Positions 6,788 to 51,900 are shown, counted from the stretch's first letter. The stretch: 64,000 nucleotides of DNA from Candidatus Aminicenantales bacterium (GCA_049682755.1 JBAUIH010000022.1:4377-68376), one strand, 5' to 3'. A program made the numbers and translations. Notes: generated by a model from the letters alone, not told the origin.

Positions 6788-7252
6788 ATGTCCCCACATC
6801 GCGCTTATTATCATTCTCCTATCGGGACGATCGAAATTATCGGGACTGAACAGGGCATCAGGGCGCTCCGTTTCACCGGCCGGAAACCCGGTCGTCAAGA
6901 TCGGCCTCATCCCGTTTTGAGGGATGCCGTTTCGCAGATCGATGAATATTTTCGAGGTCATAGGAAAGTCTTTCGACTGAAACTTGATCTTGAGGGAACA
7001 GCCTTTCAAAAGAAAGTCTGGCGACGTCTCCTCAGAATTCCTTTCGGTCTGACGGCTTCCTATGGGGAGGTGGCCGTAGCGCTTGGAATGCCCGGGGCGG
7101 CCCGGGCAGTCGGGCAGGCCAACCATCACAACCCTGTCGCCGTCGTCATACCTTGTCACCGCATTATCGGCGCTGAGGGCCGGATGGTCGGTTATGGGGG
7201 AGGCCTCTGGAGGAAGGAGTGGCTTCTGGCCCATGAAAAGGAGCTTTCCTAG
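6788..7252 (+). CDS. ogt: Methylated-DNA-protein-cysteine methyltransferase
   Basis: PCHR active-site motif (VIPCHRIIGAEG) and an HTH region (SYGEVAVALGMPGAARAVG). The ATG at 6788 sits 11 nt after TGGAGG. The listed TTG at 6779 overlaps the upstream stop. Confidence 0.85.
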   Translation: MSPHRAYYHSPIGTIEIIGTEQGIRALRFTGRKPGRQDRPHPVLRDAVSQIDEYFRGHRKVFRLKLDLEGTAFQKKVWRRLLRIPFGLTASYGEVAVALGMPGAARAVGQANHHNPVAVVIPCHRIIGAEGRMVGYGGGLWRKEWLLAHEKELS

Positions 7253-30857: not shown

Positions 30858-32362
30858 TGCCGGATAAATCCCTGATTATTATTGGCGCCGGCATAGCCGG
30901 GCTGTCGGCCGGATGCTACGGCCGGATGAACGGTTACCGGGTGCAAATCCTTGAGCAGGACACGCGGCCGGGCGGCCTGTGCACCTCCTGGGAACGGAAA
31001 GGCTACACCATCCACGGGAACATGGCCTTTCTCGCCGGTTCCGGTCCCGGCATCGCCTATCATCGTATCTGGCAGGAGCTGGGCGTAGTGCCGGAGATCC
31101 GGATTGTCGATTGTGAACACATGATCATCTTTGAAGGTCGGGGCGGCCCTAATTTCTATCTCCATAACGACATCGAACGTCTCGAACGGCACATGAAGGA
31201 GCTGGCGCCGGAAGACGGCCGGCTGATTGACGAACTCATCCGTGGAATCAAGGTATTCGCCCGCTACGACCTTCCGATCGAGAAGGCCCCCGAGCTTCTC
31301 GGCCTGGGGGACAAGATCAAGCTTATGACGTCCAGTTTGCCCCTGATTTGGGCGATGAGAAAATGGGGGAAGACACCTCTCCAGGATATCGCCCGGCGGT
31401 TTCAAAGCCCTATCCTGCGGGAGGCCTTACAGGAATTCGCTCAGCTTTTTTCGGAGGACCTGCCGGCGGCCTTCTTTCTGCTGAGTGTGGCCTGGAACCA
31501 CAGGAAATCTTTCGGCTATCCTGTCGGGGGCGGGCTCAAGTTCGCCCGAGCGATCGAGCGCCGCTTTCTGGAGCTTGGGGGCGGAGTCCACTACAGGTCC
31601 CGCGTGGTCAAGATAGTGGTCAAAGACGACCGGGCTGTCGGCGTCCGGCTGGAAGACGGCCGGGAATTGCCGGCCGACGACGTCATCTCAGCGGCCGACG
31701 GCCGTTCGACCATCTTTGAATGGCTTGGGGGAAAATACACCGACGCCAATATCCGGACGATCTATAAAAACTGGTCGGTATCTTCGCCCGTGATTCTTGT
31801 CGCTCTGGGTGTCTCTCGCTCCTTCCCGGAGGTTTCCTGGAGCGCCGCCGGAACGGTCTATCCCCTGGAGCAGCCGGTCAACATCGGCGGAAAAGAATTC
31901 CAGAAGCTCCGGCCGATGATCTATAACTATGATTCCACGCTGGCTCCTCCTGGCAAGACTCTGATTCGGCTGCTGATTCCCGCCGCTTATGAATATTGGG
32001 ATGCTCTGCGCGGTGCGCCTGATGCCTACAAGGCCGAGAAGGAGAAGATCGCCGAGACGATTATCGGCCTGCTCGATAAAAGATTTCCTGGGCTCGCCTC
32101 CCAGGTGGAGATGAGTGACATCGCTAGCCCGCTCACCTTCGAGCGCTACACGGGGAACTGGAGAGCCGGGATGATGGGTTGGCAGCTGACCCCCCAAACG
32201 ATTTCCAAATCCATACCAAAAACGCTGCCCGGCCTACGCAATTTCCATATGGCCGGACAGTGGGTGGAAACATTCGGCGGCATTCCCGGTTCGGCCCTTT
32301 CCGGCCGCAACGTCATCCAGTTCCTCTGCCGACGGGATAAAAAGACCTTCGTCAGCGGCTAG
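30854..32362 (+). CDS. NAD(P)/FAD-dependent oxidoreductase (phytoene-desaturase/amine-oxidase superfamily)
   Basis: Dinucleotide-binding motif IIGAGIAGLSAG near the N-terminus. ATGATG overlap with the kinase stop. Confidence 0.55.
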   Translation: MMPDKSLIIIGAGIAGLSAGCYGRMNGYRVQILEQDTRPGGLCTSWERKGYTIHGNMAFLAGSGPGIAYHRIWQELGVVPEIRIVDCEHMIIFEGRGGPNFYLHNDIERLERHMKELAPEDGRLIDELIRGIKVFARYDLPIEKAPELLGLGDKIKLMTSSLPLIWAMRKWGKTPLQDIARRFQSPILREALQEFAQLFSEDLPAAFFLLSVAWNHRKSFGYPVGGGLKFARAIERRFLELGGGVHYRSRVVKIVVKDDRAVGVRLEDGRELPADDVISAADGRSTIFEWLGGKYTDANIRTIYKNWSVSSPVILVALGVSRSFPEVSWSAAGTVYPLEQPVNIGGKEFQKLRPMIYNYDSTLAPPGKTLIRLLIPAAYEYWDALRGAPDAYKAEKEKIAETIIGLLDKRFPGLASQVEMSDIASPLTFERYTGNWRAGMMGWQLTPQTISKSIPKTLPGLRNFHMAGQWVETFGGIPGSALSGRNVIQFLCRRDKKTFVSG

Positions 32363-34026
32363 CGCAGCGTGCCTTCGTAGTGGGCGGTGAGCTGGCGCTT
32401 CCGGACGACCTCAGGTGTATAGGAGGGGAGAAGCAGTGGAGCCATACGATCCGTCTTGATCCGGGCCTTCTTCAATTCATTCTCATAGGCCGTAATGTGC
32501 TCGAGCGTCAGTTTGCCGAGGGCGACATGTCGGCTATATTCCGCAGCGGACTTGCCGGCCCGCCGACCGAAGACGTTGTAATCGAGGACTGAATTCCCCA
32601 TCAGCCGGTTCCGGCCGTGGACTCCGCCCGATGCTTCGCCGGCAACAAACAGACCGGGGATATTGGTTTCGCATTTGGCGTTGATCTCGATTCCGCCGTT
32701 CTGGTAATGGAGCGAGGGGTAGACGAGCATCGGCTCTTTAGTGATGTCGATCTGGTAGCGGATGAATTGCCGGACCATGGCCGGGAAGTTCTTGTAAAGA
32801 TACCCGGCTCCCTGGATGATCTCGATGAGCGGGGAATCCAGCCAGATGCCCCACCGGCCGCTCGGGGTCTGGACCCCGTTGTGCCTCTCCAGGCATTCCC
32901 GGATGAAGGCTGCGCTCTCGACATCGCGCGGCTCCCGGGGAAAGACGAACAGCTCCCCGAACTTGTTGACCGGCTGGCCGCCGGCACCGCGGATTTTTTC
33001 AGTGATCAGGAAGCCGGCGATCTGCTCGGGGAAGCTGGCGCCCGTCGGATGGTACTGGACCGAGTCCATGTACAAGAGCTTGGCCCCGGCCCGGTAGGCC
33101 ACGACCAAACCGTCGGCGGTCGCCCCGTAATGATTGGTCGTATCAAACCCTCGGATATGGAGCCGTCCGTAGCCTCCGGTCGTGATGATCGTGGCCTTGG
33201 CCTTGACCGTGAAGTACTCCTCGGTCTCCAGGTTGTAGAGGATGCCGCCGGCGCAGCGGCCCTTATTGTCCAGGATGAGCTCCACTGTCGGCATGAACTC
33301 AAGGACCGTAACCTTGTCGGGATGATTGCGGACCTCGTCCATGAGCGTCCGCAGAATGATGGCCCCGGTATAATCCCGGCAGGAGTGCATCCGCTTCCGG
33401 GAAGTGCCTCCTCCGTGAAGGACATACATCGTATGATCAGGGTTCTTGTCCCAGACTACCCCCAGATCTTCCAGCCATTTGACTACCCCCGGTGCATCCT
33501 CGGTCAGGGCGCGGACGAGTTCCGGCTTGTTGTCGAAATGTCCGCCGCCGATAACATCCAGATAATGCCGGGTCGGGGGATCTTGGGGTGTCACCGCCGC
33601 CTGCATCCCTCCCTGCGACATCATCGAGTTGGCGTCGCCGATACGGAGCTTGGTGGAGATGATGCTCTTGGCGCCGTTCTGCATGGCGATGATGGCCGCG
33701 GCGCAGCCGGCTCCGCCGCCGCCGATGATCAGGATATCCGTTTCGTAGTCGGGTTTTTCAAGCTGAAAGAGTTCCGGCTTTATCCGGCTGTGCGACTCCA
33801 GGATATCGGCCACTTCCGTCGTGATCTCTTCGCCCTTGTTGGGTCCGATGTGGACGACACGGCGTGATCCTTTCCTGTAATCGGGATGGAACTTATTCAG
33901 CACATCTTCCCGCTCTTCAGCGGTCATCGACGGGAAGACAGGCTTCCCCGATTTTTGGATCTCCAGCCGTTTAGGCCTTGTCTGCTCAACAAGATTCAGG
34001 GATTCTTTCATGTATTCTGGGTACAT
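32359..34026 (-). CDS. Fumarate reductase / succinate dehydrogenase flavoprotein-family subunit (FrdA-like), with a roughly 100-aa N-terminal extension
   Basis: FAD motif IIGGGGAGCAAA. FrdA/SdhA active-site signatures HYQNGGI (cf. HYTMGGI) and QYHPTG (cf. QFHPT). Last gene of the 13-gene operon. Confidence 0.7.
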   Translation of the reverse strand: MYPEYMKESLNLVEQTRPKRLEIQKSGKPVFPSMTAEEREDVLNKFHPDYRKGSRRVVHIGPNKGEEITTEVADILESHSRIKPELFQLEKPDYETDILIIGGGGAGCAAAIIAMQNGAKSIISTKLRIGDANSMMSQGGMQAAVTPQDPPTRHYLDVIGGGHFDNKPELVRALTEDAPGVVKWLEDLGVVWDKNPDHTMYVLHGGGTSRKRMHSCRDYTGAIILRTLMDEVRNHPDKVTVLEFMPTVELILDNKGRCAGGILYNLETEEYFTVKAKATIITTGGYGRLHIRGFDTTNHYGATADGLVVAYRAGAKLLYMDSVQYHPTGASFPEQIAGFLITEKIRGAGGQPVNKFGELFVFPREPRDVESAAFIRECLERHNGVQTPSGRWGIWLDSPLIEIIQGAGYLYKNFPAMVRQFIRYQIDITKEPMLVYPSLHYQNGGIEINAKCETNIPGLFVAGEASGGVHGRNRLMGNSVLDYNVFGRRAGKSAAEYSRHVALGKLTLEHITAYENELKKARIKTDRMAPLLLPSYTPEVVRKRQLTAHYEGTLR

Positions 34027-34037
34027 CGGCAGCTCCT

Positions 34038-34793
34038 TTATTCCGTATCCCGGGCGTAATATCTCTTTTTCAGCTCATCCCGGTTCATGACCATCAGCTC
34101 TTTATATTCCTTGTCGAACTTCTTATCTTTCATATCCCGGAGCCTTTTCTCGAGCTCGGGGCTCTTGGGGGACAGGTAGCGCCCGTAGAGCCTCCGGCCC
34201 AGTATCCCGACGTTGTAGTGGACGATCTCGGCCGGGCAGCGGATGGCACAGAGGCCGCAGCTCAGACAGTCGAAGCTCAGGTCCATGACCTTCTCGATAT
34301 CGCCCCGGATGGCCGCCTGGATATAGTCCATGACCTCAAGGCTCTGGGGACAGGCCTTGGTGCAGGTATTGCAGGCGACACAGCGGAAAATCTCCGGGTA
34401 GAGAACCTGAAAGGCGGTGACGTCAGGCGGGAGTTTCTCGATATCATAGACGGGCTTTTGGGCGGGGATGACCGGCAGCTGCGACAGCCACATGCCCTCC
34501 TCGACGAGCGTCGTGCAGGCCAGGCCGGTGTATATTTTATATTCGCCGGGAAGGCGATAGACGGTTGCGCAGGCGCCGCAGAATCCTTCCCGGCAGCCGG
34601 CCCCCCGCTTGATCTGGTAGCCGGCGTATTCGATGGCCCCCATGATGGTGGCTTCGGCGGGGACCCTGTGGGCCTTGCCCATGATATAGACAGTGACCAT
34701 CTTTTCAGCCGCGGCTTTTTTTTCGGTCGCAGGCTTCCGTGGCTTTGCGCTCTTGGGTTTTTTTCTGGCTGGTACTTTCTTTCTTGGCGTCAT
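34038..34793 (-). CDS. SdhB/FrdB-like iron-sulfur subunit with Lys/Pro-rich N-terminal tail
   Basis: 2Fe-2S motif CREGFCGAC and two Cys clusters (CVACNTCTKACP, CLSCGLCAIRCP). The N-terminal tail PRKKVPARKKPKSAKPRKPATEKKAAAEK comes before the MVTVYIMGK core. The ATG at 34793 is preceded by AAGGAGA. Confidence 0.65.
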   Translation of the reverse strand: MTPRKKVPARKKPKSAKPRKPATEKKAAAEKMVTVYIMGKAHRVPAEATIMGAIEYAGYQIKRGAGCREGFCGACATVYRLPGEYKIYTGLACTTLVEEGMWLSQLPVIPAQKPVYDIEKLPPDVTAFQVLYPEIFRCVACNTCTKACPQSLEVMDYIQAAIRGDIEKVMDLSFDCLSCGLCAIRCPAEIVHYNVGILGRRLYGRYLSPKSPELEKRLRDMKDKKFDKEYKELMVMNRDELKKRYYARDTE

Positions 34794-34825: not shown

Positions 34826-35650
34826 TCAATACTCCTGCGGCAGCGTCTTGAGCTCCGCCCAGGAGTAAACCGGGCCGTCCTTGCAGACGTAATGAAAACC
34901 GATATTGCAGCGGCCGCACTTGCCGATGCCGCACTTCATCTTGTTCTCGACCGTGGTGTAGATCTGTTCGTCCTCGAACTTGAGATCTTTGAGGTTCTTG
35001 ATGACGAACTTGATCATGATCGGCGGCCCGCAAGTAATGGCGATCGTGCCGGCGGGGGAGGGTTTCTTGTCCATGACATTGGTCGGCACGAATCCGATAA
35101 ACTCTTTCCAATCCGGCTCGGCCACGTCGATGGACAGATGGACGGGCATCTGACTCTTCAGTTCCCGCAGCTCGTCCTTGAAGACGATGTCCGCCGAGGT
35201 CCGGGCTCCGTAGATCAGGCTCAGGTCGCCGAATTCTTTGCGGCGAAGTAGCGCTGTCTGGACGATCGACCAGAGCGGCGCCAGCCCGATGCCGCCGCCG
35301 ATGAACACCAGGTTTTTCCCCTTCCAATCGTCGATCGGAAACCCATTCCCGTAGGGGCCGCGGATGCCGATGAGGTCTCCGGCCTCCATATCGTGGAGGG
35401 CGGCCGTGACCCGGCCCGAACGGAGGATACTGAACTGCATGAAGTCCTTGGCCAGCGGCGAGGAGGAGATGGAGATCATCGCTTCCCCCTTGCCGAAAAC
35501 GGACAGCATGGCGCATTGCCCGCAGCGATAGTCGAAGCGGCCGCCGTTGACCAGCTCGGTGCGAAACGTCTTGACCGCCCGGGCGCCGCCGACCTCTTCT
35601 TTGACCTGGATGATCTTGGCCAGTCTGGGGAGATAGACGTTAGGCTCCAT
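34826..35650 (-). CDS. FAD/NAD(P)-binding oxidoreductase with C-terminal 2Fe-2S (PyrK/HydG/AsrB/FlxA-like)
   Basis: Ferredoxin-reductase-type fold, about 270 aa, with a C-terminal cysteine cluster CGIGKCGRC...C. Confidence 0.6.
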   Translation of the reverse strand: MEPNVYLPRLAKIIQVKEEVGGARAVKTFRTELVNGGRFDYRCGQCAMLSVFGKGEAMISISSSPLAKDFMQFSILRSGRVTAALHDMEAGDLIGIRGPYGNGFPIDDWKGKNLVFIGGGIGLAPLWSIVQTALLRRKEFGDLSLIYGARTSADIVFKDELRELKSQMPVHLSIDVAEPDWKEFIGFVPTNVMDKKPSPAGTIAITCGPPIMIKFVIKNLKDLKFEDEQIYTTVENKMKCGIGKCGRCNIGFHYVCKDGPVYSWAELKTLPQEY

Positions 35651-36722
35651 GGTCCCTCACCTTGTCTAGGACTTTGATGATATCGATCCCCACGGGACAC
35701 ATGGTGATGCAGCGGCCGCAGCCCACGCACATGAACTTGTCGTAGACCTGGACGAAATACTGGAACTTGTGGAGCAGCCGTTGCCGCAGCCTCGAGGCCT
35801 TGTCGGGCCGGGGGTTGTGTCCCGAAGAGTGCATGGTGAAATCGGGGAATTGACAGGTGTCCCAGGTGCGAACCCTTTTTCCCCGGAGGGGAGTGGTGTC
35901 GATGATCTCATCGTTGATATCGAAACAGTGGCAGGATGGGCAGAGGTAGGTGCAAATGCCGCAGCGCAGGCAGCTCATCGCTTCCTCATCCCAGAAAGGG
36001 GAGTCGAACATGGTCTTGAGTTTCTCCGAGACCGCCCTGGCCCCTTTCAATTCGCGTTTGATCTTTTTCTCCGACTCGGTATGGATGACCTTTACTTTCT
36101 TCCTATCCTCCGGCTTCGCTTCCTCGAAGAGGCCCTTGGCGGCGTTGATAAGCGCTTCTCCCTTCGCGGTCAATGAGCGGACATAGTACTTGTCGCCGAG
36201 GTCCGTCAGCAGAATGTCTGATCCCTCCTCGGCATGAGGAGAGCCTTCCACCGAGGTGCAAAAGCAATTGTCCGATGGGGGAGGGGTGCAGGCCAGAGAC
36301 ACGAGGGTCGTTTGGTCGCGGCGCTTCCAGTAGTAAACGTCCTTGGGCTCGCTGGCAAAGACTTCGTCGAGCAACCAGGCAGCCTTAGCTTCACAGGGCC
36401 GCACTCCGAAGACAACGATTGGCTCGGCCGAAGGGAGGACCTCTTTCAGCTCGAGGGTTTCCGTGTTTCCCTCGAGAGATTTGGAAAATTCAAGAAGGAC
36501 CTCATTCTGGGGAAAGAGGATCTTCTTCGGGGGAAGAGTGGTCTGGAGGGTATCCAAAACGATGCCGTCCCCGTCCGCTTCGGCGTAGTTCCAGCGGCCC
36601 TCAGTGTCGTTTTTGGGGAGGTAGATTTTCCAGGACGTCAGTTTCTTGACCCATTGGGGAAAGTCCTTCTTGGTAAGCGTTTTTTCCATTATTCTACCTG
36701 ATAAAATCTTGAGGATCGTCAT
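35640..36722 (-). CDS. 4Fe-4S dicluster protein (HydB/AsrA/FlxB-like)
   Basis: Two ferredoxin motifs, CLRCGICTYLCPSCHC and CVGCGRCITMCPVG. The real start may be the internal MEKTLTKK near 36689. Confidence 0.5.
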   Translation of the reverse strand: MTILKILSGRIMEKTLTKKDFPQWVKKLTSWKIYLPKNDTEGRWNYAEADGDGIVLDTLQTTLPPKKILFPQNEVLLEFSKSLEGNTETLELKEVLPSAEPIVVFGVRPCEAKAAWLLDEVFASEPKDVYYWKRRDQTTLVSLACTPPPSDNCFCTSVEGSPHAEEGSDILLTDLGDKYYVRSLTAKGEALINAAKGLFEEAKPEDRKKVKVIHTESEKKIKRELKGARAVSEKLKTMFDSPFWDEEAMSCLRCGICTYLCPSCHCFDINDEIIDTTPLRGKRVRTWDTCQFPDFTMHSSGHNPRPDKASRLRQRLLHKFQYFVQVYDKFMCVGCGRCITMCPVGIDIIKVLDKVRDHGA

Positions 36723-37725
36723 CCCGGAAGCTGGAGATCAGGGCCGGAAGGTCGGGGTCGAACCCGACTTCATAGTCAAAGAGCTCTTTGGCTTCCTTCT
36801 CCAATTTCTTATTGAGGAGCCGGAGGGGGATGTCGAGGGGGCAGACGCGTTCGCATTCGCCGCAATCGATGCAGCGGCCGCCGAGATGGATGGCCCGGAC
36901 GAGATGATAGATCATGTTTTCGGACGGGGCCGCCGACCGCTGGATCCATTTGATCCGCCGGGCCTTCTCATCGGCCGTGGTGTCGGCGCTGACGGCCAGT
37001 TGGATGCTGTCGACAACGCACTCGTCGCAGTAGCACATCGGGCAGGCCGACCGGCAGGCATAACAGCGGATGCACTTGTCGATCTGCTCTTTCCAGAAGG
37101 CCCACCGCTCCTCGACCGGGAGAGACTCGATCTTTTCGACTGAGCCGAACGGCTTGTCCACCGGCCGCTTCGTTTTTTCGCCGCTCAGAACATCGTAGAT
37201 AACGGGAAAATTGGCCCGGCATTCCAGGCATCTCTCGGCGAGCAGTTCTTCGACGGGGACCTCGATCTTCCCGCCAGCGGTCGTGATGACGAAGCGGTTT
37301 TCGTCGTTGACTTCGATTGTTTTCGCCTTCTTGCCCGCCAGCTTTTTGGCCAGCTTGGCATCGTCGACAACGCCGGCTTTCTCACAGGAGATGCCCAGGA
37401 TATAGACGTCGCCGCGCTCGATGAATTTTTCCTGGAGGAGGACGACGATGGCCCGGCTGTCGCATCCCTTGACGACGATTCCAACCGGCCTCTTGTCGGG
37501 CGGCTTTTCCTTTCCCTTCCGCCTTTTTTCATCGACCAGAAAACGGACAAGGTTATGGACGCAAGTGGGGTCCCAGATGAGCCTGTCCACGTCCTCCGGC
37601 TGCTTGATGAAGAGCGGAGCGGCCGGCCAGCCGTTGCTGCCCGCGCCATAGCCGATGATATATTTCACCTTGCCGTCCTGGAGAAGTTTCCTGGCTTCCT
37701 CTTTAAGGGTGTCGATCTTGGCCAT
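36694..37725 (-). CDS. FrhB/FdhB-like iron-sulfur flavoprotein-family protein (FlxC-like position)
   Basis: Cys clusters CLECRANFP and CIRCYACRSACPMCYC...CIDCGECERVCP. It lies between the mvhD and HydB-like genes. Confidence 0.45.
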   Translation of the reverse strand: MAKIDTLKEEARKLLQDGKVKYIIGYGAGSNGWPAAPLFIKQPEDVDRLIWDPTCVHNLVRFLVDEKRRKGKEKPPDKRPVGIVVKGCDSRAIVVLLQEKFIERGDVYILGISCEKAGVVDDAKLAKKLAGKKAKTIEVNDENRFVITTAGGKIEVPVEELLAERCLECRANFPVIYDVLSGEKTKRPVDKPFGSVEKIESLPVEERWAFWKEQIDKCIRCYACRSACPMCYCDECVVDSIQLAVSADTTADEKARRIKWIQRSAAPSENMIYHLVRAIHLGGRCIDCGECERVCPLDIPLRLLNKKLEKEAKELFDYEVGFDPDLPALISSFRDDDPQDFIR

Positions 37726-38147
37726 CAGGGATTTCTCCTCAGCTTGGACTGGGGGCCCAGGGGTTTCAGTTCCTTGACGAAGTCTTTGATGACCTGGGTG
37801 TACTTGGTTCCTTCCGCGGCCGAAATCCAGGACATCTGGAACCGCTCCGGTTCAAGGCCGATGTATTCCAGGAGTTTCTTGACGAGGTTCAATCTTCTCC
37901 GGGCGTAATAGTTGCCCTTGATATAATGGCAGTCGCCGGGATGGCAACCGGAGACGAGCACACCGTCGGCGCCCTTGTTGAAGGCCGAAAAAATATAGAG
38001 TGGAGAGACGCTCCCGGAGCACATTACCTGAATGGGGACGACGTTGGGCGGGTATTCCATCCGGGAGACGCCGGCCAGGTCGCTCCCGGCCGAGGAACAC
38101 CACTTGCAGAGAAAGGCGACAATCCGGGGTTCGAACTCCTCGGCCAT
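37725..38147 (-). CDS. mvhD: MvhD-like (methyl-viologen-reducing hydrogenase delta subunit) protein
   Basis: Begins MAEEFEPRIVAFLCKWCSSAG. The ATG at 38147 is preceded by GGAGGATAATC and sits 2 nt after the hdrA stop. The listed ORF extends to 38243. Confidence 0.75.
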   Translation of the reverse strand: MAEEFEPRIVAFLCKWCSSAGSDLAGVSRMEYPPNVVPIQVMCSGSVSPLYIFSAFNKGADGVLVSGCHPGDCHYIKGNYYARRRLNLVKKLLEYIGLEPERFQMSWISAAEGTKYTQVIKDFVKELKPLGPQSKLRRNP

Positions 38148-38149
38148 GA

Positions 38150-40099
38150 TTATCCTCCGAGACACGCGTTGATCATTTCGGCGACCTGATTCTGGGTGAG
38201 ATTCTTGACCTGGATGGCCGACCGCAGGCACGTGGCCGTGCAAGTGCCGCAGCCTTCGCAGAGGACCTCGTTGACCTCGACTTTTCCGTCTTTTAAGGAA
38301 AGAGCGTCATAGGGACAGACGGCGACACACATCCCGCAGCCCGTGCAGAGGTTGTTGGTGACGCTGGCCACGGTCGGCGCGTGGAACAATCTCTCCTGAG
38401 AAAGGATAACCACGGCTTTGACGGCGGCACCGCTGGCCTGGGCGACGGCCTCGGGGATATCCTTAGGAGCTTGGGCAGCTCCGGCTAGAAACATGCCGGA
38501 GGTGACGCTTTCCACCGGCCTCAACTTGGGATGGGCCTCGGCCAGAAATCCGTCCTTGTCCATGGCCAGCTTGAATTTCTTGGCCAGTTCCTGGGCGCCC
38601 TTAGAAGGGCGCATGGCCTGGGCCAAAACGACCATGTCGGCGTCGATCTCGATAGGCTTGCCGGTCAAAGTGTCCACCCCCCAAACGACGATCTTGCCCT
38701 TGTCTTCGAAGATCTTGGAGACCTTGCCGCGGAGATAGACAACGCCATCTTCCTCGACGGTCCGCTGGACGAATTCTTCATATCCTTTTCCGCCGGAGCG
38801 GATGTCGATATAAAAGACATAGGCCTGGCCGTCATGAACGTGGTGCTTGTAGAGCATGGCGTGTTTGGCCGTGTACATGCAACAGATCTTTGAGCAGTAA
38901 GCACAGTGATTCTCCGGATCTCGCGATCCGGAGCACTGGATGAAGACGACTTCTTTGGGTTCCTTGTGATCGGACGGCCGGAGGATCTTGCCCATGGTGG
39001 GACCGGAGGCCGAGAGGAGCCGTTCGAACTGGAGGCCGTCCAGGACATCGGCGTATCTGCCGAAGCCGTATTCGGCCATGTTTTCCTTCTCATAGAGGTC
39101 AAAGCCAGTGGCGACGATGATGGCCCCCACTTCTTCCTCGATGACCTCGGGCTTCTGGTCGTAATTGATGGCCTTGGGCTTGCAGACATCGGCGCACTTG
39201 CCGCAGGCGATGGTGGTGGAGATGTCTGGACAATTTTTGTCGTCGAGAGTATAGGACGCCGGAATAGCCTGGGGGAAGGGGATATAGATCGCCCGCCTTC
39301 CCGTCAGACCGAGGTCGAACTCGTTGGGCACGACGATCGGGCAGACCTTGGTGCATTCGTCGCAGAGCGTGCACTTGGCCGGATCGACATAGGTGGGTTT
39401 CTTCAAGATCTTGACCTTGAAGTTGCCGACATAGCCGGTGACGTCCTGAACCTCGCTATAGGTCATCAGCTTGATTTTGGGATGCTTGGACACCTCGACC
39501 ATTTTTGGTGTCAGAATACACTGAGAGCAGTCGAGGGTGGGGAAAGTCTCCGACAGCTGGATCATGTGGCCGCCGATGGAGGGGCTCCTCTCGACCAGGA
39601 TCACTTCGAAACCGCTGTTGGCCAGGTCGAGAGCGGCCTGAATGCCGGAAATCCCTCCGCCGACGACGAGGGCCCTCCGGGTCACAGGGACGCTCAGGGG
39701 TTCCAGCGATTCGTTCTGGCGGACCTTTTCGACCGCGGAATGAGCGATCTTGGTGGCCTTCCGGGTGGCCCGGGGCTTGTCCTTATGGACCCAGCTGCAC
39801 TGTTCGCGGATATTGGCGATCTCGCAACGGAAACTGTTGATGCCGGCGCGGTTGGCGGCGTTGCGGAAGGTCGTTTCATGGAGGTTAGGAGAGCAGCAGG
39901 CGACGACGACGCTGTCCAGTTTTTTCTCCTTGATAGCCTGCTCGATCAGGTTTTGGCCGGGGTCCGAGCACATATAAACATAGTCCTCGGAGTGGACCAC
40001 CCCCGGGTGTTTGGCCAGCTCCTCGGCGACCTTCTTCACATCCACCGTGCCGGCGATGTTGATGCCGCAGTGGCAGACAAAGACTCCGGTCCGTTTCAT
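38150..40099 (-). CDS. hdrA: Heterodisulfide reductase subunit A (FAD, multiple FeS)
   Basis: Begins VFVCHCGINIAG. Dinucleotide-binding motif VVGGGISGIQAA. Several CxxCxxCxxxC clusters. About 650 aa. Confidence 0.85.
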   Translation of the reverse strand: MKRTGVFVCHCGINIAGTVDVKKVAEELAKHPGVVHSEDYVYMCSDPGQNLIEQAIKEKKLDSVVVACCSPNLHETTFRNAANRAGINSFRCEIANIREQCSWVHKDKPRATRKATKIAHSAVEKVRQNESLEPLSVPVTRRALVVGGGISGIQAALDLANSGFEVILVERSPSIGGHMIQLSETFPTLDCSQCILTPKMVEVSKHPKIKLMTYSEVQDVTGYVGNFKVKILKKPTYVDPAKCTLCDECTKVCPIVVPNEFDLGLTGRRAIYIPFPQAIPASYTLDDKNCPDISTTIACGKCADVCKPKAINYDQKPEVIEEEVGAIIVATGFDLYEKENMAEYGFGRYADVLDGLQFERLLSASGPTMGKILRPSDHKEPKEVVFIQCSGSRDPENHCAYCSKICCMYTAKHAMLYKHHVHDGQAYVFYIDIRSGGKGYEEFVQRTVEEDGVVYLRGKVSKIFEDKGKIVVWGVDTLTGKPIEIDADMVVLAQAMRPSKGAQELAKKFKLAMDKDGFLAEAHPKLRPVESVTSGMFLAGAAQAPKDIPEAVAQASGAAVKAVVILSQERLFHAPTVASVTNNLCTGCGMCVAVCPYDALSLKDGKVEVNEVLCEGCGTCTATCLRSAIQVKNLTQNQVAEMINACLGG

Positions 40100-40728
40100 G
40101 ATTTTGCCTTTCGGGGAGCGCTCTTCTTGGGTTTGGAGACCGGCGGCTTTTCGTCCGGCTTGATCATTGTGGGAGGTTTTTCCTTTTCCTTGGCTAACAG
40201 CTCGATCCCATAGTCATAGCCCTTATCAAAAGCCCTGATATTGAGCTCAAGAAACCTCTTGGGGACGAGGCCGGGGAGGGCCTTTTTCATGGCCTCCGGG
40301 CTGACCAACTTGGTGATGGCGGTGAAGAATCCGAGCATGACCAGGTTGCCGAAGATGCGGTTGCCCATCTCCTCGGCGAAGCGGGTCGAAGGAACGCCAA
40401 AATACTTGATCTCGTCCCGCACGGGCTTGGGTTTCACCAGGTCGGTGTCATAGATGAGCGTTCCGTCGCCGCGGAGATCCGGCTCGTATTTCTCATAGGC
40501 ATCCTGAGACATGGAAACGAGAATTTCCGGCCGGGTGATGTAGGGATAAAGGACGCGCTCCTCCGAGATCACCAACTGGGAACTGCAGGCGCTTCCTCTC
40601 GCTTCCGGTCCGAAGCTCTGGGTCATGGTTCCGAACTTATTATCAAAGAGAGAAACGGCCTTGCCGGTGATCAAACCGCAGCGGATAATTCCCTGGCCGC
40701 CGTAACCCGAAAAACGGATCTCGCTCAT
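40096..40728 (-). CDS. 2-oxoacid:ferredoxin oxidoreductase gamma subunit with Lys/Pro-rich C-terminal tail
   Basis: Begins FSGYGGQGIIRCG, typical of POR/KOR gamma. The C-terminal tail is KEKEKPPTMIKPDEKPPVSKPKKSAPRKAKS. Confidence 0.75.
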   Translation of the reverse strand: MSEIRFSGYGGQGIIRCGLITGKAVSLFDNKFGTMTQSFGPEARGSACSSQLVISEERVLYPYITRPEILVSMSQDAYEKYEPDLRGDGTLIYDTDLVKPKPVRDEIKYFGVPSTRFAEEMGNRIFGNLVMLGFFTAITKLVSPEAMKKALPGLVPKRFLELNIRAFDKGYDYGIELLAKEKEKPPTMIKPDEKPPVSKPKKSAPRKAKS

Positions 40729-41594
40729 GGTTTCACTCCGTAGGGGACATATTTTTCGCCCAGGGCCTTCTGGAGATGGGCGTTCATGCAGTCAAGAAAT
40801 GTTGGCTTTTCCTTGTCCACGAACTTGCCGACGATGAGCTTGCCTTGATATTCGATGCCCACGGTACGTGTATCGGCGCCGTGCTGAATTTCAGATTGGT
40901 CATAATAGTACTTGAGCAGATTCAAGCCGTCGCCCAGCCGGTTCCGCCGGGCATACAGTGTGACACAAGGAGTGATGACCTCGATGAAAGAGAAGCCTCG
41001 CTTGGCCAGCGCCTCCTGGATGGATTTGGTGACCCTCCGGATATGGAGGGATGTCCAGCGCGCCACGTAGGTGGCGCCGCAGGTTTCGACTAAGTAGGGC
41101 AGGTTGAAGGGGTATTCGAAGTTCCCGTAGGGCGCCGTAGAAAGATTGGCACCGAGCGGAGATGTGGCGGCCACCTGTCCTCCTGTCATGGCGTAGTTGA
41201 AGTTGTTCACGCAGATGACCACGATGTCCATGTTCCGTCGGGCGGCGTGAATGAGATGGTTGCCGCCGATCCCGACGATGTCTCCGTCGCCGCTGAAGAC
41301 CACGACCTTGAGCTCCGGATTGGCCAACTTGAGCCCGGTGGCGAAGGGGATGGCCCGGCCGTGGGTGGTGTGGAAGGAGTCGAACTTGACATAGCCCGCC
41401 ACCCGCCCCGTGCAACCGATGCCGGAGACAACGGCGACCTTGTCGAGGTCGAGTTCACTTTTTTTAAGGGCATCGGCGAACGAAGTGACCACCGTGCCGA
41501 TGCCACAGCCCGGGCACCAGATGTGCGGAATCCGGTCCATTCGGAGGAAATCCTCCATCGGGTTTTTTTCTTCGGCGAGTTCCTCGCGGTTCAT
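40725..41594 (-). CDS. 2-oxoacid:ferredoxin oxidoreductase beta subunit (TPP-binding)
   Basis: WCPGCGIG region and TPP motif GDGD. Confidence 0.85.
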   Translation of the reverse strand: MNREELAEEKNPMEDFLRMDRIPHIWCPGCGIGTVVTSFADALKKSELDLDKVAVVSGIGCTGRVAGYVKFDSFHTTHGRAIPFATGLKLANPELKVVVFSGDGDIVGIGGNHLIHAARRNMDIVVICVNNFNYAMTGGQVAATSPLGANLSTAPYGNFEYPFNLPYLVETCGATYVARWTSLHIRRVTKSIQEALAKRGFSFIEVITPCVTLYARRNRLGDGLNLLKYYYDQSEIQHGADTRTVGIEYQGKLIVGKFVDKEKPTFLDCMNAHLQKALGEKYVPYGVKP

Positions 41595-42757
41595 CGGACG
41601 GCCTCCTTAATGGCTTTCAAGATATCTTCGGGATCGTGGACCCAACCCCCGCAATGAGTAACGCCGATAACCGGCGCTTGGCCGAAAGCGCAACGCTCGA
41701 CCTCGCGTCCGATCTGGCCGAGGTTGAGCTCGGGCACGACAAAAGCCTTGATTTTCCCGGCCAGCTCTTTGATTCTTTTTTCGGGGAACGGCCAGACCGT
41801 GATCAACCGTATCGTGCCGACCCTGATGCCGGCTTCGCGGGCGAGCCGGACCGCCCTGATAGCCACCCTGGAGGTGATTCCGTAGGAAATGACCACGACC
41901 TCGGCATTGTCGATCTGGTCTTCCTGCAACTCAATGATCTTATGGGCGTTCTTCCGGATCTTGTCAACGAGATGATGAACGCACCAGTCCTGGACCTCGG
42001 CATTGAGCACCGGATAGCCGCGTTCATCATGGGTGAGTCCGGTGGTGTGGAAGCGGTAGCCGTCTCCCGGCTTGACCATGAAGGGGACCAGGTCCTTGTC
42101 CGGCTTGTAGGGCAGGTACTTGTCCTTCGGCCCCTGATACCACTTCCGCTCGACCACTTCGATCTGGTCGGCCGGCGGAATGACCACTTTCTCGTGCATG
42201 TGGCCGACGCATTCGTCGGTCATGATAAACACCGGAACCCGATAAAGCTCCGCAAGATTGAAGGCCTTGATGGTCAGGTCGAAACACTCCTGAGGAGAAT
42301 CCGGGGAAAGGGCGATGATCTCGTAGTCGCCGTGAGAACCGAATTTCGCCTGCATCATGTCTCCTTGACCGGCCAGAGTGGGGAGACCGGTGGAGGGCCC
42401 GCCCCTCTGGACATTGGCGATCACGAGGGGGGTCTCCATCATCACGGCGAGGCCGATGTTTTCCATCATCAAGGAGAAGCCCGGGCCTGAGGTCACCGTC
42501 ATGGCTTTCTGACCTCCCCAGGAGGCGCCGATCAGAGCGGTTATCGAGGCGAGTTCGTCCTCCATCTGGATGAAAACCCCCCCGACCAAAGGGATCCTCT
42601 CAGAGAAGCGCTCAGCTGTTTCGGTAGAAGGGGTAATCGGGTATCCGCCAAAAAAGCGGCAGCCGGCAGCCAGCCCGCCCTCGGCGATGGCGAAGTCTCC
42701 ATCGAGATAATGGGACCCGGTCAGAACTCCTTTAGGGTCTGCTTTCACTTTTCTCAC
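41591..42757 (-). CDS. 2-oxoacid:ferredoxin oxidoreductase alpha subunit
   Basis: Region [24 protein letters not shown], typical of OFOR alpha. Confidence 0.85.
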
Positions 42758-43010
42758 CTTCTTCCTCCTCTTTTTTGAGAGTGACGAAAATCGCGAACTC
42801 CGGGCAGATGGCTTCGCAGAGCTGGCAGTAAATGCACTCGTTTTCTTTTACGACCCGGGGGGGGTGGTAACCCTTTTTGTTGAATTCCTCGGAGAGCTCG
42901 AGGACATCGCGAGGACAGTACTCGACGCAAAAGCCGCAGCCCTTGCACCTTTCCTTATGGATGTGGATATTGCCTTTTTTGGCTCTGAGATTGCCGAAAC
43001 GGATGGTCAT
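42732..43010 (-). CDS. 2-oxoacid:ferredoxin oxidoreductase delta subunit (2x[4Fe-4S] ferredoxin)
   Basis: Two ferredoxin motifs, [12 protein letters not shown] and [12 protein letters not shown]. 92 aa. Confidence 0.75.
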
Positions 43011-43017
43011 GGTTCCC

Positions 43018-43896
43018 TCAGATCAGGCCCTTTTCTTCAAGAAGCGGCCTGGGATTGACATAGTGGAGATCAAGACGAAGGTCTTTCTCTTCGCAGCCCA
43101 AGGCAATGGCCAGAAGCTGGGTGAAATAGAGGATCGGGAGACCCTTGAATCCGGAATACTTCTCGGCCGTTTGCTTTTGTCGGAAATCCAGGTTGAAAGC
43201 GCAGAGGGGGCAGCTGACCGAGACCACCTCGGCGCCGCGGTTCTGCGCGGACGTCAGAATACTGTAGGTCCGCTCAACGACATTCTCCGGTTTGTCGACC
43301 GTCTGATAGGCCCCGCAACATTCCGTCTTATAGGGAAAATCGACCGCTTCCGCCCCGAGGACGACCGCCAGGTCGTCGAGGACGGTCGGGTTCTCCATGT
43401 CGTCCAGGCCGATTTCTTTGGGGCGGACGAGGAGACAACCGTAATAACTGGCCACTTTGAGATTGCGAAGGGGCTTTTTGACTTTCTTGCCGATCGTCTC
43501 GAACGAGACATCCTCCCGGAGCAACTCCAGCAGGTGCCGGACCTTCACATCCCCCTGATAGGCGATCTTTTCCTCGTCCATGAATTTATGGATCTTCTCC
43601 AGGCTCTCCGGATCGGCCTTGATCCGTTCGTTGACCCGCTTGAGGGTGTTGTAGCACATCGCGCAGAGGGTTATGACCGAGTCCGCCTGTTCTTCCTTGA
43701 CCCGAATCAGGTTGCGGACGGAGGCGAGATGGCGCATCAGGTCGTCCGTGGTCAGAGAGTAGACGGTTCCGCAGCAGTTCCAGCGTGAGAGTTCCTTGAC
43801 GTCGACCCCCAGCTCGCGCAGCGCACAGAGAGCGGAGTCCTCAAAATTTTTGGCGTTGCTCTTAAGAGTGCACCCTGGATAATAGCTGACTTTCAT
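43018..43896 (-). CDS. hdrB: Heterodisulfide reductase subunit B (two CCG domains)
   Basis: Begins [13 protein letters not shown]. Cysteine patterns CCG...C repeated twice (NCCGTVY...CAMCY; ECCGAYQ...CPLCAFN). Confidence 0.8.
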
Positions 43897-43954: not shown

Positions 43955-44362
43955 TCAAGACGTGAATTTCCGGAAATTGCTGATCAGGGCGATGGCCGGG
44001 ACGGAAGCCTTTTCCTCGTTGCTGAGTTTGGACACCTCGACATGGTCCTTTCTCTTGCGGAGCAGGACCTGGCGGACCGCTTCCATGACCTCGGCAATCT
44101 TGATCCCCTTGGGACAGCGCACGTTGCAGGTATAGCAGGACGCGCAGACCCAGACCGACTTGGATTCGAGGAGCTCGTCTTTGAGGCCGAGCTGGGCGTA
44201 GCGGATAACCTGGTTAGGGAGGATGTCCATGTCACCGACGGCCGGGCAGCCGGCCGAGCACTTGCCGCACTGGTAGCAGGCCGAGAGCTTCTGGCCGCTG
44301 ATCTCTTCGATCTTCTTCACAAAATCATCGCGGATTGTGTTCCTGGAGATGTTCGTTCTCAT
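43955..44362 (-). CDS. hdrC: Heterodisulfide reductase subunit C (2x[4Fe-4S])
   Basis: Motifs CYQCGKCSAGCP and CASCYTCNVRCP. First gene of the operon. Confidence 0.75.
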   Translation of the reverse strand: MRTNISRNTIRDDFVKKIEEISGQKLSACYQCGKCSAGCPAVGDMDILPNQVIRYAQLGLKDELLESKSVWVCASCYTCNVRCPKGIKIAEVMEAVRQVLLRKRKDHVEVSKLSNEEKASVPAIALISNFRKFTS

Positions 44363-50591: not shown

Positions 50592-50966
50592 CTAGGCCTG
50601 CTTTCCCGGCGGGTGCATCTCCAGAAACGCCTTCAACCTCTGGAACTCAGGTCCCAGGGCGCCGATCGCTTCCCGGGCTCTATCCAAGTTTTTCTCCCCC
50701 CCGGCCGTTTCGATGGCCAGTCCGAGCTTTTGGAGCGGGATGAGGCTGAGGTTTGCCGAGGCCCCCTTGAGGCTGTGTCCAACTTCCTGAATCTGAGTGG
50801 AATCTCCCCGGGAGAGGGCCTTTTCAAGGAGTTCCTTTTTTTCATCGAATTCATGAAAATAGAGGTTGAGGAGGTCCTGGAGAAACGAGGTGTCCCCGCC
50901 GATTCTGTCAAGAACGGCTGAAAAATCAATGGGTTGATCGGCTTCAAGTTGGATGGTCTCAGACAT
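50592..50966 (-). CDS. Hpt (histidine phosphotransfer) domain protein
   Basis: The HSLKGASANL motif contains the phospho-accepting His. The start MSETIQLE at 50966 is preceded by AGGAG and overlaps the receiver-GGDEF stop. Confidence 0.6.
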   Translation of the reverse strand: MSETIQLEADQPIDFSAVLDRIGGDTSFLQDLLNLYFHEFDEKKELLEKALSRGDSTQIQEVGHSLKGASANLSLIPLQKLGLAIETAGGEKNLDRAREAIGALGPEFQRLKAFLEMHPPGKQA

Positions 50967-51900
50967 GGTTACGCTCCTGACTCCGACTGGATATGCCATT
51001 GGCCACGATATGGCAGTTGCGTCCCTGGCGTTTGGCCTTAAGCAACGCCTCATCGGCGACCTTGATGAATTTCTCGGCGCTGAGAATCCCGGCGACGTCC
51101 GTGGAGGCGCAGCCGGCGGAGATGGTCAGGAGGACCTTGTCCAGATCTTTTTTGATCCCCTTCTTAGCGACGGACTGGCGGAGCCGTTCGGCGACCTTGA
51201 TGATCTTCGAAGAACTGCAGCGAGGAAGGATGATCATGATCTCGTCCCCGCCGTAGCGCCCGATTTTGTCGGATTTCCTGATTTTCCTTTTGATTCTGGA
51301 AACCACCTGGAGGAGAGCCTGATCTCCGATATCGTGACCGTAAAAATCATTGATCCTTTTGAAATGGTCGATATCCAGCAGGATCACTCCCGTAGGCACC
51401 CCTTCTCTCTTGCCCCGGTCCAGTTCTTCTGTCAGGAACTTGGTGGTCTCGCTGCGGTTCCAGATTTTCGTCAGGCCGTCCCGGCTGGCGATATCTTTGA
51501 GCTGTCTCTGGACGGCAAGCAATTTGTCTTCGAGATCGATAATCCGTCTTCCTGTCTGGAGGCGGGCCCGCAGCTCCAGGAAGTCGACGGGTTTGGTCAT
51601 GTAATCATCTGCCCCGGAGGAAAGCCCGGTGATGATATCCTGCCTGCGGTCCTTGGCGCTGAGAATGATGATATATGTATACTTGTATTTCTTGCGGCGG
51701 CGGATCTTGCGGCAGACCTCGATCCCGTCTATTCCCGGCATCATCCAGTCCAGAAGCGCCATGCGGAGTTCTTGGTCCTGCAGCGCTTCCCAGGCTTCGG
51801 CTCCGCTACGCGCGGTGACGACGAGGTAGCCCCAGTTCAGCAGGTTTTTCTGCAGAATTTTCGAGCTGATAAGGTCGTCTTCGGCGATCAGGATTTTCAT
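50959..51900 (-). CDS. Response regulator with receiver and GGDEF (diguanylate cyclase) domains
   Basis: Receiver region KILIAEDD...[16 protein letters not shown] active site [13 protein letters not shown] overlap with the histidine kinase gene. Confidence 0.85.

Follow-up and report, generated by a model that had tools for sequence, protein, structure and literature searches.

A fumarate reductase-like gene pair without membrane anchor in a Flx-Hdr-Kor cluster of Candidatus Aminicenantales: a candidate outlet of an electron-bifurcating complex

What is the function of a fumarate reductase-like gene pair that lacks a membrane anchor and closes a cluster of hdr genes? The question is raised by a 64,000-nt stretch of DNA (the window; GCA_049682755.1 JBAUIH010000022.1:4377-68376) from a metagenome-assembled genome (MAG) of Candidatus Aminicenantales, whose minus strand encodes an FrdB-like iron-sulfur (Fe-S) subunit and an FrdA-like flavoprotein. 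A preliminary description of this locus proposed a split thiol:fumarate reductase. We consider it rather probable that the pair is a cytoplasmic, anchor-less fumarate reductase module that serves as the high-potential exit for electrons from a flavin-based bifurcating complex, built around HdrA and specified by the same operon. The evidence comes from the gene content and operon-like packing of the cluster, from the fold, active site and cluster ligands of the two proteins, and from synteny and the swapping of electron-input modules among relatives.

Layout of the cluster and the proposed electron route

The Fe-S subunit and flavoprotein genes are the last two of 13 co-directional minus-strand genes, which overlap or are separated by gaps of at most 58 bp and would be transcribed in the order hdrC-hdrB-korD-korA-korB-korC-hdrA-flxD-flxC-flxB-flxA-FeS-flavoprotein. 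The gap between the last two genes is 11 bp. The features are listed below in order of transcription, with the convergent neighbour at the end (lengths in amino acids, aa).

43955..44362, minus strand: hdrC-like, first gene, 135 aa; Pfam Fer4_8, Fer4_9 and Fer4_17, 2x[4Fe-4S]; NCBIfam HdrC TIGR03290, 88 bits (cut-off 160)
43018..43896, minus strand: hdrB-like, two CCG domains, 292 aa; Pfam CCG x2, E 7e-20; NCBIfam HdrB 183 bits and SdhE 166 bits, both under cut-off
42732..43010, minus strand: korD, delta-subunit ferredoxin of 2-oxoglutarate:ferredoxin oxidoreductase (OGOR), 92 aa; NCBIfam OGOR_delta 76.5 bits, OorD 62 bits
41591..42757, minus strand: korA, 2-oxoacid:acceptor oxidoreductase alpha subunit, 388 aa; NCBIfam NF006412, 562 bits (above the 411 cut-off); Pfam POR_N, PFOR_II
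40725..41594, minus strand: korB, thiamine pyrophosphate (TPP)-binding beta subunit, 289 aa; Pfam TPP_enzyme_C; best NCBIfam match the OGOR beta subunit, 233 bits
40096..40728, minus strand: korC, gamma subunit, 210 aa; Pfam POR, E 2e-31; Lys/Pro-rich C-terminal tail, from the translation
38150..40099, minus strand: hdrA, flavin adenine dinucleotide (FAD)/Fe-S subunit, 649 aa; NCBIfam HdrA2 827 bits and HdrA 655 bits, full length, both under equivalog cut-offs
37725..38147, minus strand: flxD/mvhD, about 140 aa, probable ATG start at MAEEFEP; Pfam FlpD, E 1.7e-53 (residues 41-163 of a longer open reading frame, ORF); VhuD 119 bits
36694..37725, minus strand: flxC-like Fe-S protein, 343 aa; only Pfam 4Fe-4S dicluster families; position that of flxC in the published symbiont cluster
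35640..36722, minus strand: flxB-like Fe-S protein of AsrA/ShyB/HydB type, 360 aa; Pfam Fer4_22, E 1e-33; NCBIfam ShyB 206 bits, AsrA 153 bits
34826..35650, minus strand: flxA-like NAD(P)H/FAD/[2Fe-2S] subunit of AsrB/ShyC/HydG type, 274 aa; Pfam NAD_binding_1, DHODB_Fe-S_bind, FAD_binding_6; NCBIfam PRK08345, 237 bits
34038..34793, minus strand: SdhB/FrdB-like Fe-S subunit, 251 aa; Cys ligands in register with E. coli SdhB and FrdB
32359..34026, minus strand: flavoprotein of FrdA/SdhA fold, 555 aa; Pfam FAD_binding_2, AlphaFold2 model, conserved catalytic residues
30854..32362, plus strand: FAD amine-oxidase/phytoene-desaturase-like gene, 502 aa; convergent, 4-bp overlap with the flavoprotein stop

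Both ORFs of the pair were thus recovered where the preliminary description had located FrdA/FrdB-like genes. Its placement of the pair in an operon with HdrB/HdrC holds in that all four belong to the same co-directional cluster, a linkage conserved in Aminicenantes and archaea, but HdrB and HdrC are encoded about 9 kb upstream, at the 5' end. The immediate upstream neighbours of the pair are FlxA/B/C/D and HdrA, preceded by KorDABC, none of which had been mentioned. We also agree that no membrane anchor gene follows: the next gene is the convergent amine-oxidase-like one, and the ORFs scanned over the length of the window include no member of an Sdh/Frd membrane-anchor family. The position of the amine-oxidase-like gene is not kept in other Aminicenantes, where a single locus (L003) has a distant copy, 4 kb off. 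An alpha/beta-hydrolase gene adjoins the cluster on its 5' side. Counts from a promoter and terminator scan were at or near shuffle expectation and were not used. Elsewhere in the window, four long ORFs of 355-619 aa have no Pfam family at E <= 1e-8 (43-1902, 5031-6782 and 50953-52281 on the plus strand, 8723-9790 on the minus strand); the one at 50953-52281 overlaps a minus-strand ORF.

By Pfam and NCBIfam, all seven subunit types of the FlxABCD-HdrABC complex are present in this one cluster, with assignments at the family level since every Flx and Hdr subunit misses its equivalog cut-off. The presence of Flx, HdrA and OGOR in the same operon favours flavin-based bifurcation over a simple thiol- or NADH-dependent reductase, and the tight packing of the 13 genes likewise argues for a bifurcating complex. 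The preliminary suggestion of a soluble thiol- or NAD(P)H-linked enzyme stands as to a soluble, Hdr-linked Frd-like module, while its "thiol" part is unsupported.

In the complex that we propose, the NAD/FAD/[2Fe-2S] subunit FlxA would oxidise NADH, and FlxB, FlxC and FlxD (MvhD) would relay the electrons to the FAD of HdrA, the presumed bifurcating flavoprotein. One electron of each pair would run downhill through HdrC, the CCG protein HdrB and the FrdB-like subunit to the FAD of the FrdA-like subunit, where fumarate would be reduced to succinate. The other would be driven uphill to ferredoxin, or straight to KorD and the four-subunit OGOR. The net reaction would be 2 NADH + fumarate + 2 Fd(ox) -> 2 NAD+ + succinate + 2 Fd(red). 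The reduction of fumarate by NADH releases 58.1 kJ/mol (-58.1 kJ/mol, table in PMC13147460) and, by simple arithmetic, moving two electrons from NADH (-320 mV) to ferredoxin (-480 mV) costs about +31 kJ. The coupled reaction would therefore be exergonic, at roughly -27 kJ/mol, and its reverse correspondingly unfavourable.

The Fe-S subunit and the flavoprotein

The Fe-S subunit contains the 2Fe-2S CxxxxCxxC motif and two further Cys clusters noted earlier: [2Fe-2S] ligands at C67-x4-C72-x2-C75...C93, a first 4Fe-4S motif (C138xxC141xxC144xxxC148P) and a second motif (C176xxC179xxC182xxxC186P). All three groups match, in register, the cluster-ligand cysteines of SdhB and FrdB from E. coli. In the second motif, C179 is an extra cysteine relative to the three-Cys [3Fe-4S] site of SdhB/FrdB, so that a second [4Fe-4S] cluster is predicted in its place; the predicted set is [2Fe-2S] plus 2x[4Fe-4S]. 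A family profile built without the E. coli sequences matched FrdB (1kf6_B), including its 2Fe-2S domain, with E 3.5e-8, among many generic ferredoxins. The curated models were missed widely, at 28.8 bits for TfrB (NF004898, cut-off 385) and 26 bits for dhsB (TIGR00384, cut-off 88). Database annotations of the homologues disagree among "HdrC", "ferredoxin" and "formate hydrogenlyase subunit 6".

The C-terminal tail of the Fe-S subunit is helical and charged. Its N-terminus carries a Lys/Pro-rich leader, which in Aminicenantes ranges from about 15 to 45 residues while keeping the frame, and which the archaeal, gammaproteobacterial and fused homologues lack. A role of this leader in tethering or docking is conceivable; alternatively, translation may in fact begin at the internal Met32. 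Lys/Pro/Ala-rich low-complexity sequence is found both in residues 1-31 of the Fe-S subunit (34701-34793) and in the KorC C-terminal tail (40096-40200).

Among the alternatives, a thiol-mediated system related to that of the preliminary description is the likeliest; we give it a low probability. Flx-HdrABC would here reduce a disulfide, either on a DsrC-like protein or in a low-molecular-weight heterodisulfide, and the FrdAB-like proteins with HdrB/HdrC would re-oxidise the thiol with fumarate, so that coupling would run through a thiol/disulfide pool. The Fe-S subunit, HdrC and HdrB do jointly span the domains of methanogen TfrB, covering its NCBIfam model piecewise (positions 22-86, 119-242 and 262-465, respectively), and the top NCBIfam match of the flavoprotein is TfrA. 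The wording of Rubin-Blum 2019 (PMC6315080) agrees with this idea, which is also an option in Mitchell 2024 (PMC11636981). The spread of TfrB domains over three proteins is the part of the earlier claim that stands. On the other side, Pfam found no CCG domain in the Fe-S subunit, and the only CCG domains of the cluster are those of the HdrB-like protein, a separate polypeptide; the Fe-S subunit and flavoprotein thus cannot oxidise thiols by themselves. The operon has one HdrB/HdrC pair, which as both disulfide reductase and thiol oxidase would form a futile loop, and the domain scan detected no DsrC-type thiol-carrier gene in the cluster. It is because of these three points that we regard the thiol-mediated version as less likely. 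In addition, both Tfr cut-offs were missed by far (326 against 718 bits for TfrA; see above for TfrB), and to our knowledge biosynthesis of coenzymes M and B is not expected in Aminicenantes.

The flavoprotein is 100% identical to an NCBI protein listed under Candidatus Aminicenantales. Its residues 97-480 match Pfam FAD_binding_2 (E 7.7e-71), comprising the FAD and capping domains. Its motifs are GGGGAG (102-107), QYHPT (324-328) and HYQNGG (440-445), the latter two being the QYHPT and HYxxGG signatures reported before. Pfam gave no match in the flavoprotein to Succ_DH_flav_C, the canonical C-terminal helical domain, and a short helical C-terminus takes its place. The AlphaFold2 model, built from 46 sequences, has a mean predicted local distance difference test score (pLDDT) of 92 and a predicted template modelling score (pTM) of 0.91, with only the last 20 residues disordered. 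The best match among solved structures is E. coli FrdA (1kf6_A; E 3.8e-36, TM 0.69, 31% identity), followed by mycobacterial Sdh1, flavocytochrome c3 and NadB. A weakly matching A/B pair, PDB 9lay, is a membrane-bound Chloroflexus succinate:quinone reductase (SQR) and no closer relative.

To examine the active site, the flavoprotein was aligned with 39 database relatives and three E. coli enzymes, FrdA, SdhA and NadB. The fumarate/succinate site is complete: H326, T328, T342, E343, R346, R367, H440 and R474 correspond to H232, T234, T244, E245, R248, R287, H355 and R390 of E. coli FrdA. R367 is the proton-donor Arg, the His and Arg carboxylate clamps are both intact, and the catalytic set is kept across the clade of N-terminally extended proteins; the loss of catalytic His/Arg residues, which the preliminary description had named as fatal to its reading, was not observed. 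Together, the FrdA fold and the complete site argue for fumarate reductase identity. At the position of the covalent 8-alpha-histidyl-FAD (His44 of E. coli FrdA), the flavoprotein and its clade have Asn (Asn133), and the FAD is predicted to be bound non-covalently. The N-terminal extension, described earlier as roughly 100 residues, is real and comprises residues 1-95. It is predicted to be folded (pLDDT 81-96), with helices at 4-26 and 36-46, a hairpin and a helix at 70-76, and its motif HP(D/N)Y...G.N.GE (FHPDY...G.NKGE) is recognisable in relatives down to 37% identity.

The family placement of the flavoprotein is less conventional. NCBIfam models rank as TfrA (326 bits) over sdhA/frdA (270) over nadB (TIGR00551, 248), with cut-offs of 718, 567 and 453 bits, and align to it only over their first ~430 positions (TfrA NF004900, 5-427 of 546; sdhA/frdA TIGR01812, 1-426 of 568); a bona fide TfrA (P0197) in the same search space scores 765 bits on NF004900. 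In a bootstrapped neighbour-joining tree, the window flavoprotein lies outside the NadB clade, which is supported at 100% and contains the E. coli enzyme; it joins a small set of N-terminally extended proteins in a clade of its own. The grouping with L-aspartate oxidase that would have refuted the preliminary reading was not seen. Glu121 of NadB (E. coli numbering, motif TRE(G/A)(G/A)HS), which binds the substrate amino group, is present in 7/7 sequences of the NadB clade, is Gly210 in the window flavoprotein and mostly Phe in Frd, Sdh and TfrA. The position outside the NadB clade, Gly210 in place of Glu and the missed cut-offs lead us to place the protein, on sequence grounds, in a distinct, uncharacterised branch of the fumarate reductase superfamily that is neither NadB nor bona fide TfrA.

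We see only a small chance that the flavoprotein is instead an L-aspartate oxidase-like or other dicarboxylate or enoate oxidoreductase (for example for mesaconate/methylsuccinate) with a different redox task beside Hdr. Such an enzyme would fit the database annotation, which is only "FAD-binding protein", the separate clade, the failure to reach any curated cut-off with NadB scoring near SdhA, and the unusual extension, absent C-terminal domain and Gly for the Frd/Sdh Phe. It would not fit the exclusion from the NadB clade, the Gly at the Glu121 site or the intact C4-dicarboxylate-binding residues, nor the adjacency to fumarase genes in Bathyarchaeia described below. The protein also has an obligate SdhB-like Fe-S partner, fused to it in one relative (P0122), and we know of no such partner for NadB. 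APS (adenosine 5'-phosphosulfate) reductase was dropped as a candidate, no such family being among the best 25 NCBIfam matches.

The observation made in the preliminary description is confirmed, and its interpretation partly supported.

Conservation of the cluster and exchange of its partner genes

Relatives were sought in one genome per GTDB species, and 324 species genomes were found to encode a relative; each of the best 80 is at least 78% identical. The order hdrB-korDABC-hdrA-flxDCBA-FeS-Flavo is retained in essentially all of these best 80 Aminicenantes loci with long enough contigs. Eight Aminicenantes loci (L052, L058, L068, L070, L071, L076, L078 and L079) are without flxC, flxB and flxA; they retain hdrCB-korDABC-hdrA-mvhD-FeS-Flavo and have no input module in the cluster. 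Many carriers of an 80-90% identical cluster (L005-L013, L046, L050 and others) are labelled as uncultured Eubacteriales, Clostridiales, Bacteroidales, Pseudomonadota or Desulfaltia and are probably mislabelled Aminicenantes. In the closed genome CP070750.1 (L055), a run of 100 N (7071-7170) lies just upstream of flxB, and hdr/kor genes were not detected upstream of this gap; the cluster may be misassembled or truncated there. We found no paper describing this cluster in Aminicenantes or Bathyarchaeota, and the Asgard literature was not specifically searched.

The best 120 matches listed were all from Aminicenantes and, with the more distant flavoprotein P0121 as query, from Bathyarchaeota and Asgard archaea. 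Among clusters at 50% identity, few of the listed full-length representatives have the N-terminal extension. P0121 itself (58% identity; lineage labelled Bathyarchaeota, Asgardarchaeia and Halobacteria) is encoded on a Bathyarchaeia-type contig in the order korDABC-hdrA-mvhD-hdrC-hdrB-FeS-Flavo, the shared proteins being 42-58% identical to those of the window. An Asgardarchaeia MAG (JBNGVH010000002.1; L097:42-11656) has korABC-hdrA-mvhD-MvhG-MvhA-HycI-hdrC-hdrB-FeS-Flavo, with 49-63% identity for the shared proteins (63% for HdrA); here the [NiFe] hydrogenase subunits MvhG and MvhA and the HycI protease lie between mvhD and hdrC and replace FlxABC. The recurrence of Kor, HdrA, MvhD, HdrC, HdrB, FeS and Flavo despite changes of order speaks for the proposed complex, and their recurrence in archaea indicates that the Hdr/Kor linkage survived both rearrangement and transfer between bacteria and archaea.

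A closed Bathyarchaeota chromosome (CP070659.1; L096:6440-11662) places the pair in another context. Malic enzyme, both subunits (alpha and beta) of a class I fumarase, FeS and Flavo are co-directional, the FeS-Flavo pair being directly 3' of the fumarase, and the neighbourhood also has genes for a CCG protein and for a 2-oxoacid:ferredoxin oxidoreductase of two subunits. A fumarase-beta-like fragment lies 3' of the pair in a further locus (L084). It is from this adjacency to fumarase and malic enzyme in archaea, with the intact active site, that we infer fumarate to be the substrate.

More distant relatives retain the two proteins in simpler settings. P0122 (49% identity, 727 aa; L093:5250-7433) is a natural fusion with the Fe-S subunit at the flavoprotein N-terminus; it keeps the extension and has no hdr, flx or kor neighbours. 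P0123 (45%, marine Gammaproteobacteria MAGs; L081-L083:9366-12891) belongs to a three-gene unit, FeS-Flavo-NuoF-like, whose third member is an NADH/FMN/[4Fe-4S] protein of 418 aa, and this unit resembles a minimal, NADH-dependent form of the enzyme. P0126 and P0131 belong to isolated Flavo/FeS pairs, and no recognisable Fe-S partner adjoins P0143, P0140, P0136 or P0130. From the pattern of fusion and adjacency across relatives, the Fe-S subunit and the flavoprotein emerge as an obligate pair, and the swapped neighbours show that the electron-input cassette is interchangeable: it can be FlxABC (NADH), MvhAG (H2) or a NuoF-like protein, or be missing from the cluster. The pair of P0126 (41%; L085:8001-10357) has no partner genes, and P0285, a member of its 90% cluster, is named Prochlorococcus sp. 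MIT 1201, an occurrence unexpected for an oxygenic phototroph.

Electron direction, related systems and significance

The least probable of the alternatives is a complex running backwards, as a confurcating succinate dehydrogenase. Low-potential electrons from OGOR and ferredoxin and high-potential electrons from succinate would merge on HdrA and reduce NAD+ via Flx, in an oxidative route from 2-oxoglutarate through succinyl-CoA and succinate to fumarate; an anaerobe so equipped would need neither a quinone nor a high-potential acceptor for succinate oxidation. OGOR is indeed encoded in the same operon, Sdh/Frd flavoproteins and HdrA-type complexes are reversible in principle, and Aminicenantes are usually described as fermentative heterotrophs, not autotrophs; but the reaction is uphill by ~+27 to +33 kJ/mol under standard conditions, non-covalent FAD (N133) is typical of fumarate-reducing rather than succinate-oxidising enzymes, and the Asgard hydrogenase input and the malic enzyme/fumarase context of Bathyarchaeia fit a reductive route to succinate.

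Several points nevertheless weigh against a bifurcating fumarate reductase. There is no biochemical evidence for such a complex in any organism. Physical contact between Frd, Hdr and Kor is structurally unsupported: the sole model of the Fe-S subunit/flavoprotein interface, a pseudo-fusion, was poor (pLDDT 59.7, pTM 0.56) and was discarded. The flavoprotein reaches no curated SdhA/FrdA/TfrA cut-off, is missing the usual C-terminal domain and carries Gly in place of the Phe that adjoins the substrate site in Frd/Sdh, and its substrate could be a different C4-dicarboxylate. Deep nodes of the neighbour-joining tree are poorly supported. Among the ORFs scanned in the window there is no gene for ATP-citrate lyase (ACL; aclAB), succinyl-CoA synthetase or fumarase, nor idh, acn, mdh or any other gene of the tricarboxylic acid (TCA) cycle. 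That more distant FeS-Flavo pairs stand alone, with neither Hdr nor Flx nor Kor in their vicinity, indicates that the module does not depend on Hdr. Finally, tfrAB of Endoriftia is the exception to the common differential-expression pattern of its cluster (Mitchell 2024, PMC11636981).

A more elaborate form of the proposal is possible but doubtful. All products of the cluster would form a single megacomplex, in which HdrA uses fumarate instead of the heterodisulfide as its high-potential acceptor and the low-potential electron is handed via KorD to a built-in OGOR without free ferredoxin. Through horizontal transfer, this "fumarate-to-2-oxoglutarate" metabolon would be common to Aminicenantes, Asgard archaea and Bathyarchaeia, its input cassette being either Flx (NADH) or Mvh (H2), and the N-terminal extension and the Lys-rich Fe-S and KorC tails would serve as docking elements.

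The arrangement is not new. Rubin-Blum 2019 (PMC6315080) described it for tubeworm symbionts (Ca. Endoriftia persephone and the Escarpia laminata symbiont), Thioflavicoccus mobilis and an aquifer MAG, with the order frdB, frdA, hdrC, hdrB, korD, korA, korB, korC, hdrA, flxD, flxC, flxB, flxA, aclB, aclA, idh (Table S1). These authors proposed, as we do here, that Flx-Hdr bifurcates electrons from NADH to OGOR and a "thiol:fumarate reductase", and found the cluster genes all well expressed; Mitchell 2024 (PMC11636981) reported operon-like co-expression in Endoriftia, and a 2026 survey (PMC13147460) restates the bifurcation hypothesis. Compared by published gene content and order, this cluster and that of the window share 13 gene families and an identical core, hdrC-hdrB-korD-korA-korB-korC-hdrA-flxD-flxC-flxB-flxA. 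They differ in that frdB-frdA is at the 5' end there and at the 3' end here, that the symbiont cluster runs on into aclBA and idh of the autotrophic reductive TCA cycle whereas the 64 kb of the window have no ACL or other TCA gene, and that the host is a sulfur-oxidising gammaproteobacterium rather than an Aminicenantes bacterium.

A related operon occurs in Pseudoclostridium thermosuccinogenes. According to Koendjbiharie et al. (PMC7282089, with the 2019 preprint cited there), the "succinate operon" combines fumarate hydratase, Flx-Hdr and Frd, and a ferredoxin-reducing fumarate reductase was proposed. Likened from that description, it shares with the window an anchor-less two-gene Frd next to a seven-gene Flx-Hdr and the proposed coupling of succinate formation to ferredoxin reduction; it differs in having a fumarase and, as described, no OGOR, and in belonging to a cultured succinate producer with physiological hints, such as the abolition of succinate formation by H2. 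An Mvh-Hdr-TFR-OGOR cluster is known from Cloacimonadota (Williams et al. 2021). This kind of system is still hypothetical, and we found no paper that uses the phrase "bifurcating fumarate reductase".

Characterised enzymes resemble parts of the locus. The MvhAGD-HdrABC and FlxABCD-HdrABC electron-bifurcating complexes (Ramos et al. 2015) have homologues in the window of HdrA, MvhD/FlxD, HdrB, HdrC and FlxA/B/C, and the Asgard relative has MvhAG at the FlxABC position; the hdr genes of the window, however, are split by korDABC, an Frd module is added, and no heterodisulfide or DsrC partner is evident. Methanothermobacter TfrAB (Heim et al. 1998) corresponds in its TfrA (the top curated match), its non-covalent FAD, its lack of an anchor and its [2Fe-2S] plus two [4Fe-4S] clusters. 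However, TfrB is one polypeptide with the CCG domains, while in the window the CCG and HdrC-like parts are separate and 9 kb off, beside kor, and the window flavoprotein has the N-terminal extension and is without the C-terminal domain covered by the TfrA models. The five-subunit FrdABCDE of Hydrogenobacter thermophilus (Miura et al. 2008, via PMC13147460), likened by description, is cytoplasmic, NADH-linked and multi-subunit, with FrdA/FrdB-type catalytic subunits acting in the reductive TCA cycle; in that secondary account it is not described as HdrA/Flx-containing or ferredoxin-reducing.

E. coli FrdABCD provides the best structural match (FrdA), identical catalytic residues and aligned FrdB ligands, but the window has no FrdC/FrdD, has Asn for the covalent-FAD His, an N-terminally extended flavoprotein without the C-terminal domain, and 4Fe-4S for 3Fe-4S in the Fe-S subunit. 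The type E (non-classical) SQR/MFR enzyme SdhABE joins an SdhAB-type pair to a CCG protein, SdhE, and the window HdrB scores 166 bits for SdhE against 183 for HdrB. In type E SQR a second [4Fe-4S] cluster replaces the [3Fe-4S], and the window Fe-S subunit is alike in this respect. SdhE, however, anchors its enzyme to the membrane and links it to quinone, whereas the context in the window is HdrA/Flx/Kor, with no quinone-related gene.

The electron-bifurcating fumarate reductase has so far remained a postulate, made three times from genomes: for tubeworm symbionts, a succinate-producing Clostridium and Cloacimonadota. To this our analysis adds that the cluster is near-universal and highly conserved in Aminicenantes, that its closest outside relatives, among the matches listed, come from two lineages abundant in the subsurface, Bathyarchaeia and Asgard archaea, and that the catalytic pair makes up a clade of its own, marked by the N-terminal extension and by the lack of both the C-terminal domain and a CCG domain. 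The exchangeable input modules (Flx, Mvh, NuoF-like or none) offer several natural variants for biochemistry, and this modularity argues that these bacterial enzymes are probably misnamed in the literature as "thiol:fumarate reductase". If the proposal is true, part of the ~58 kJ/mol lost in NADH-dependent fumarate reduction would be recovered as reduced ferredoxin, and the reductive C4-to-C5 branch of the TCA cycle would become much cheaper.

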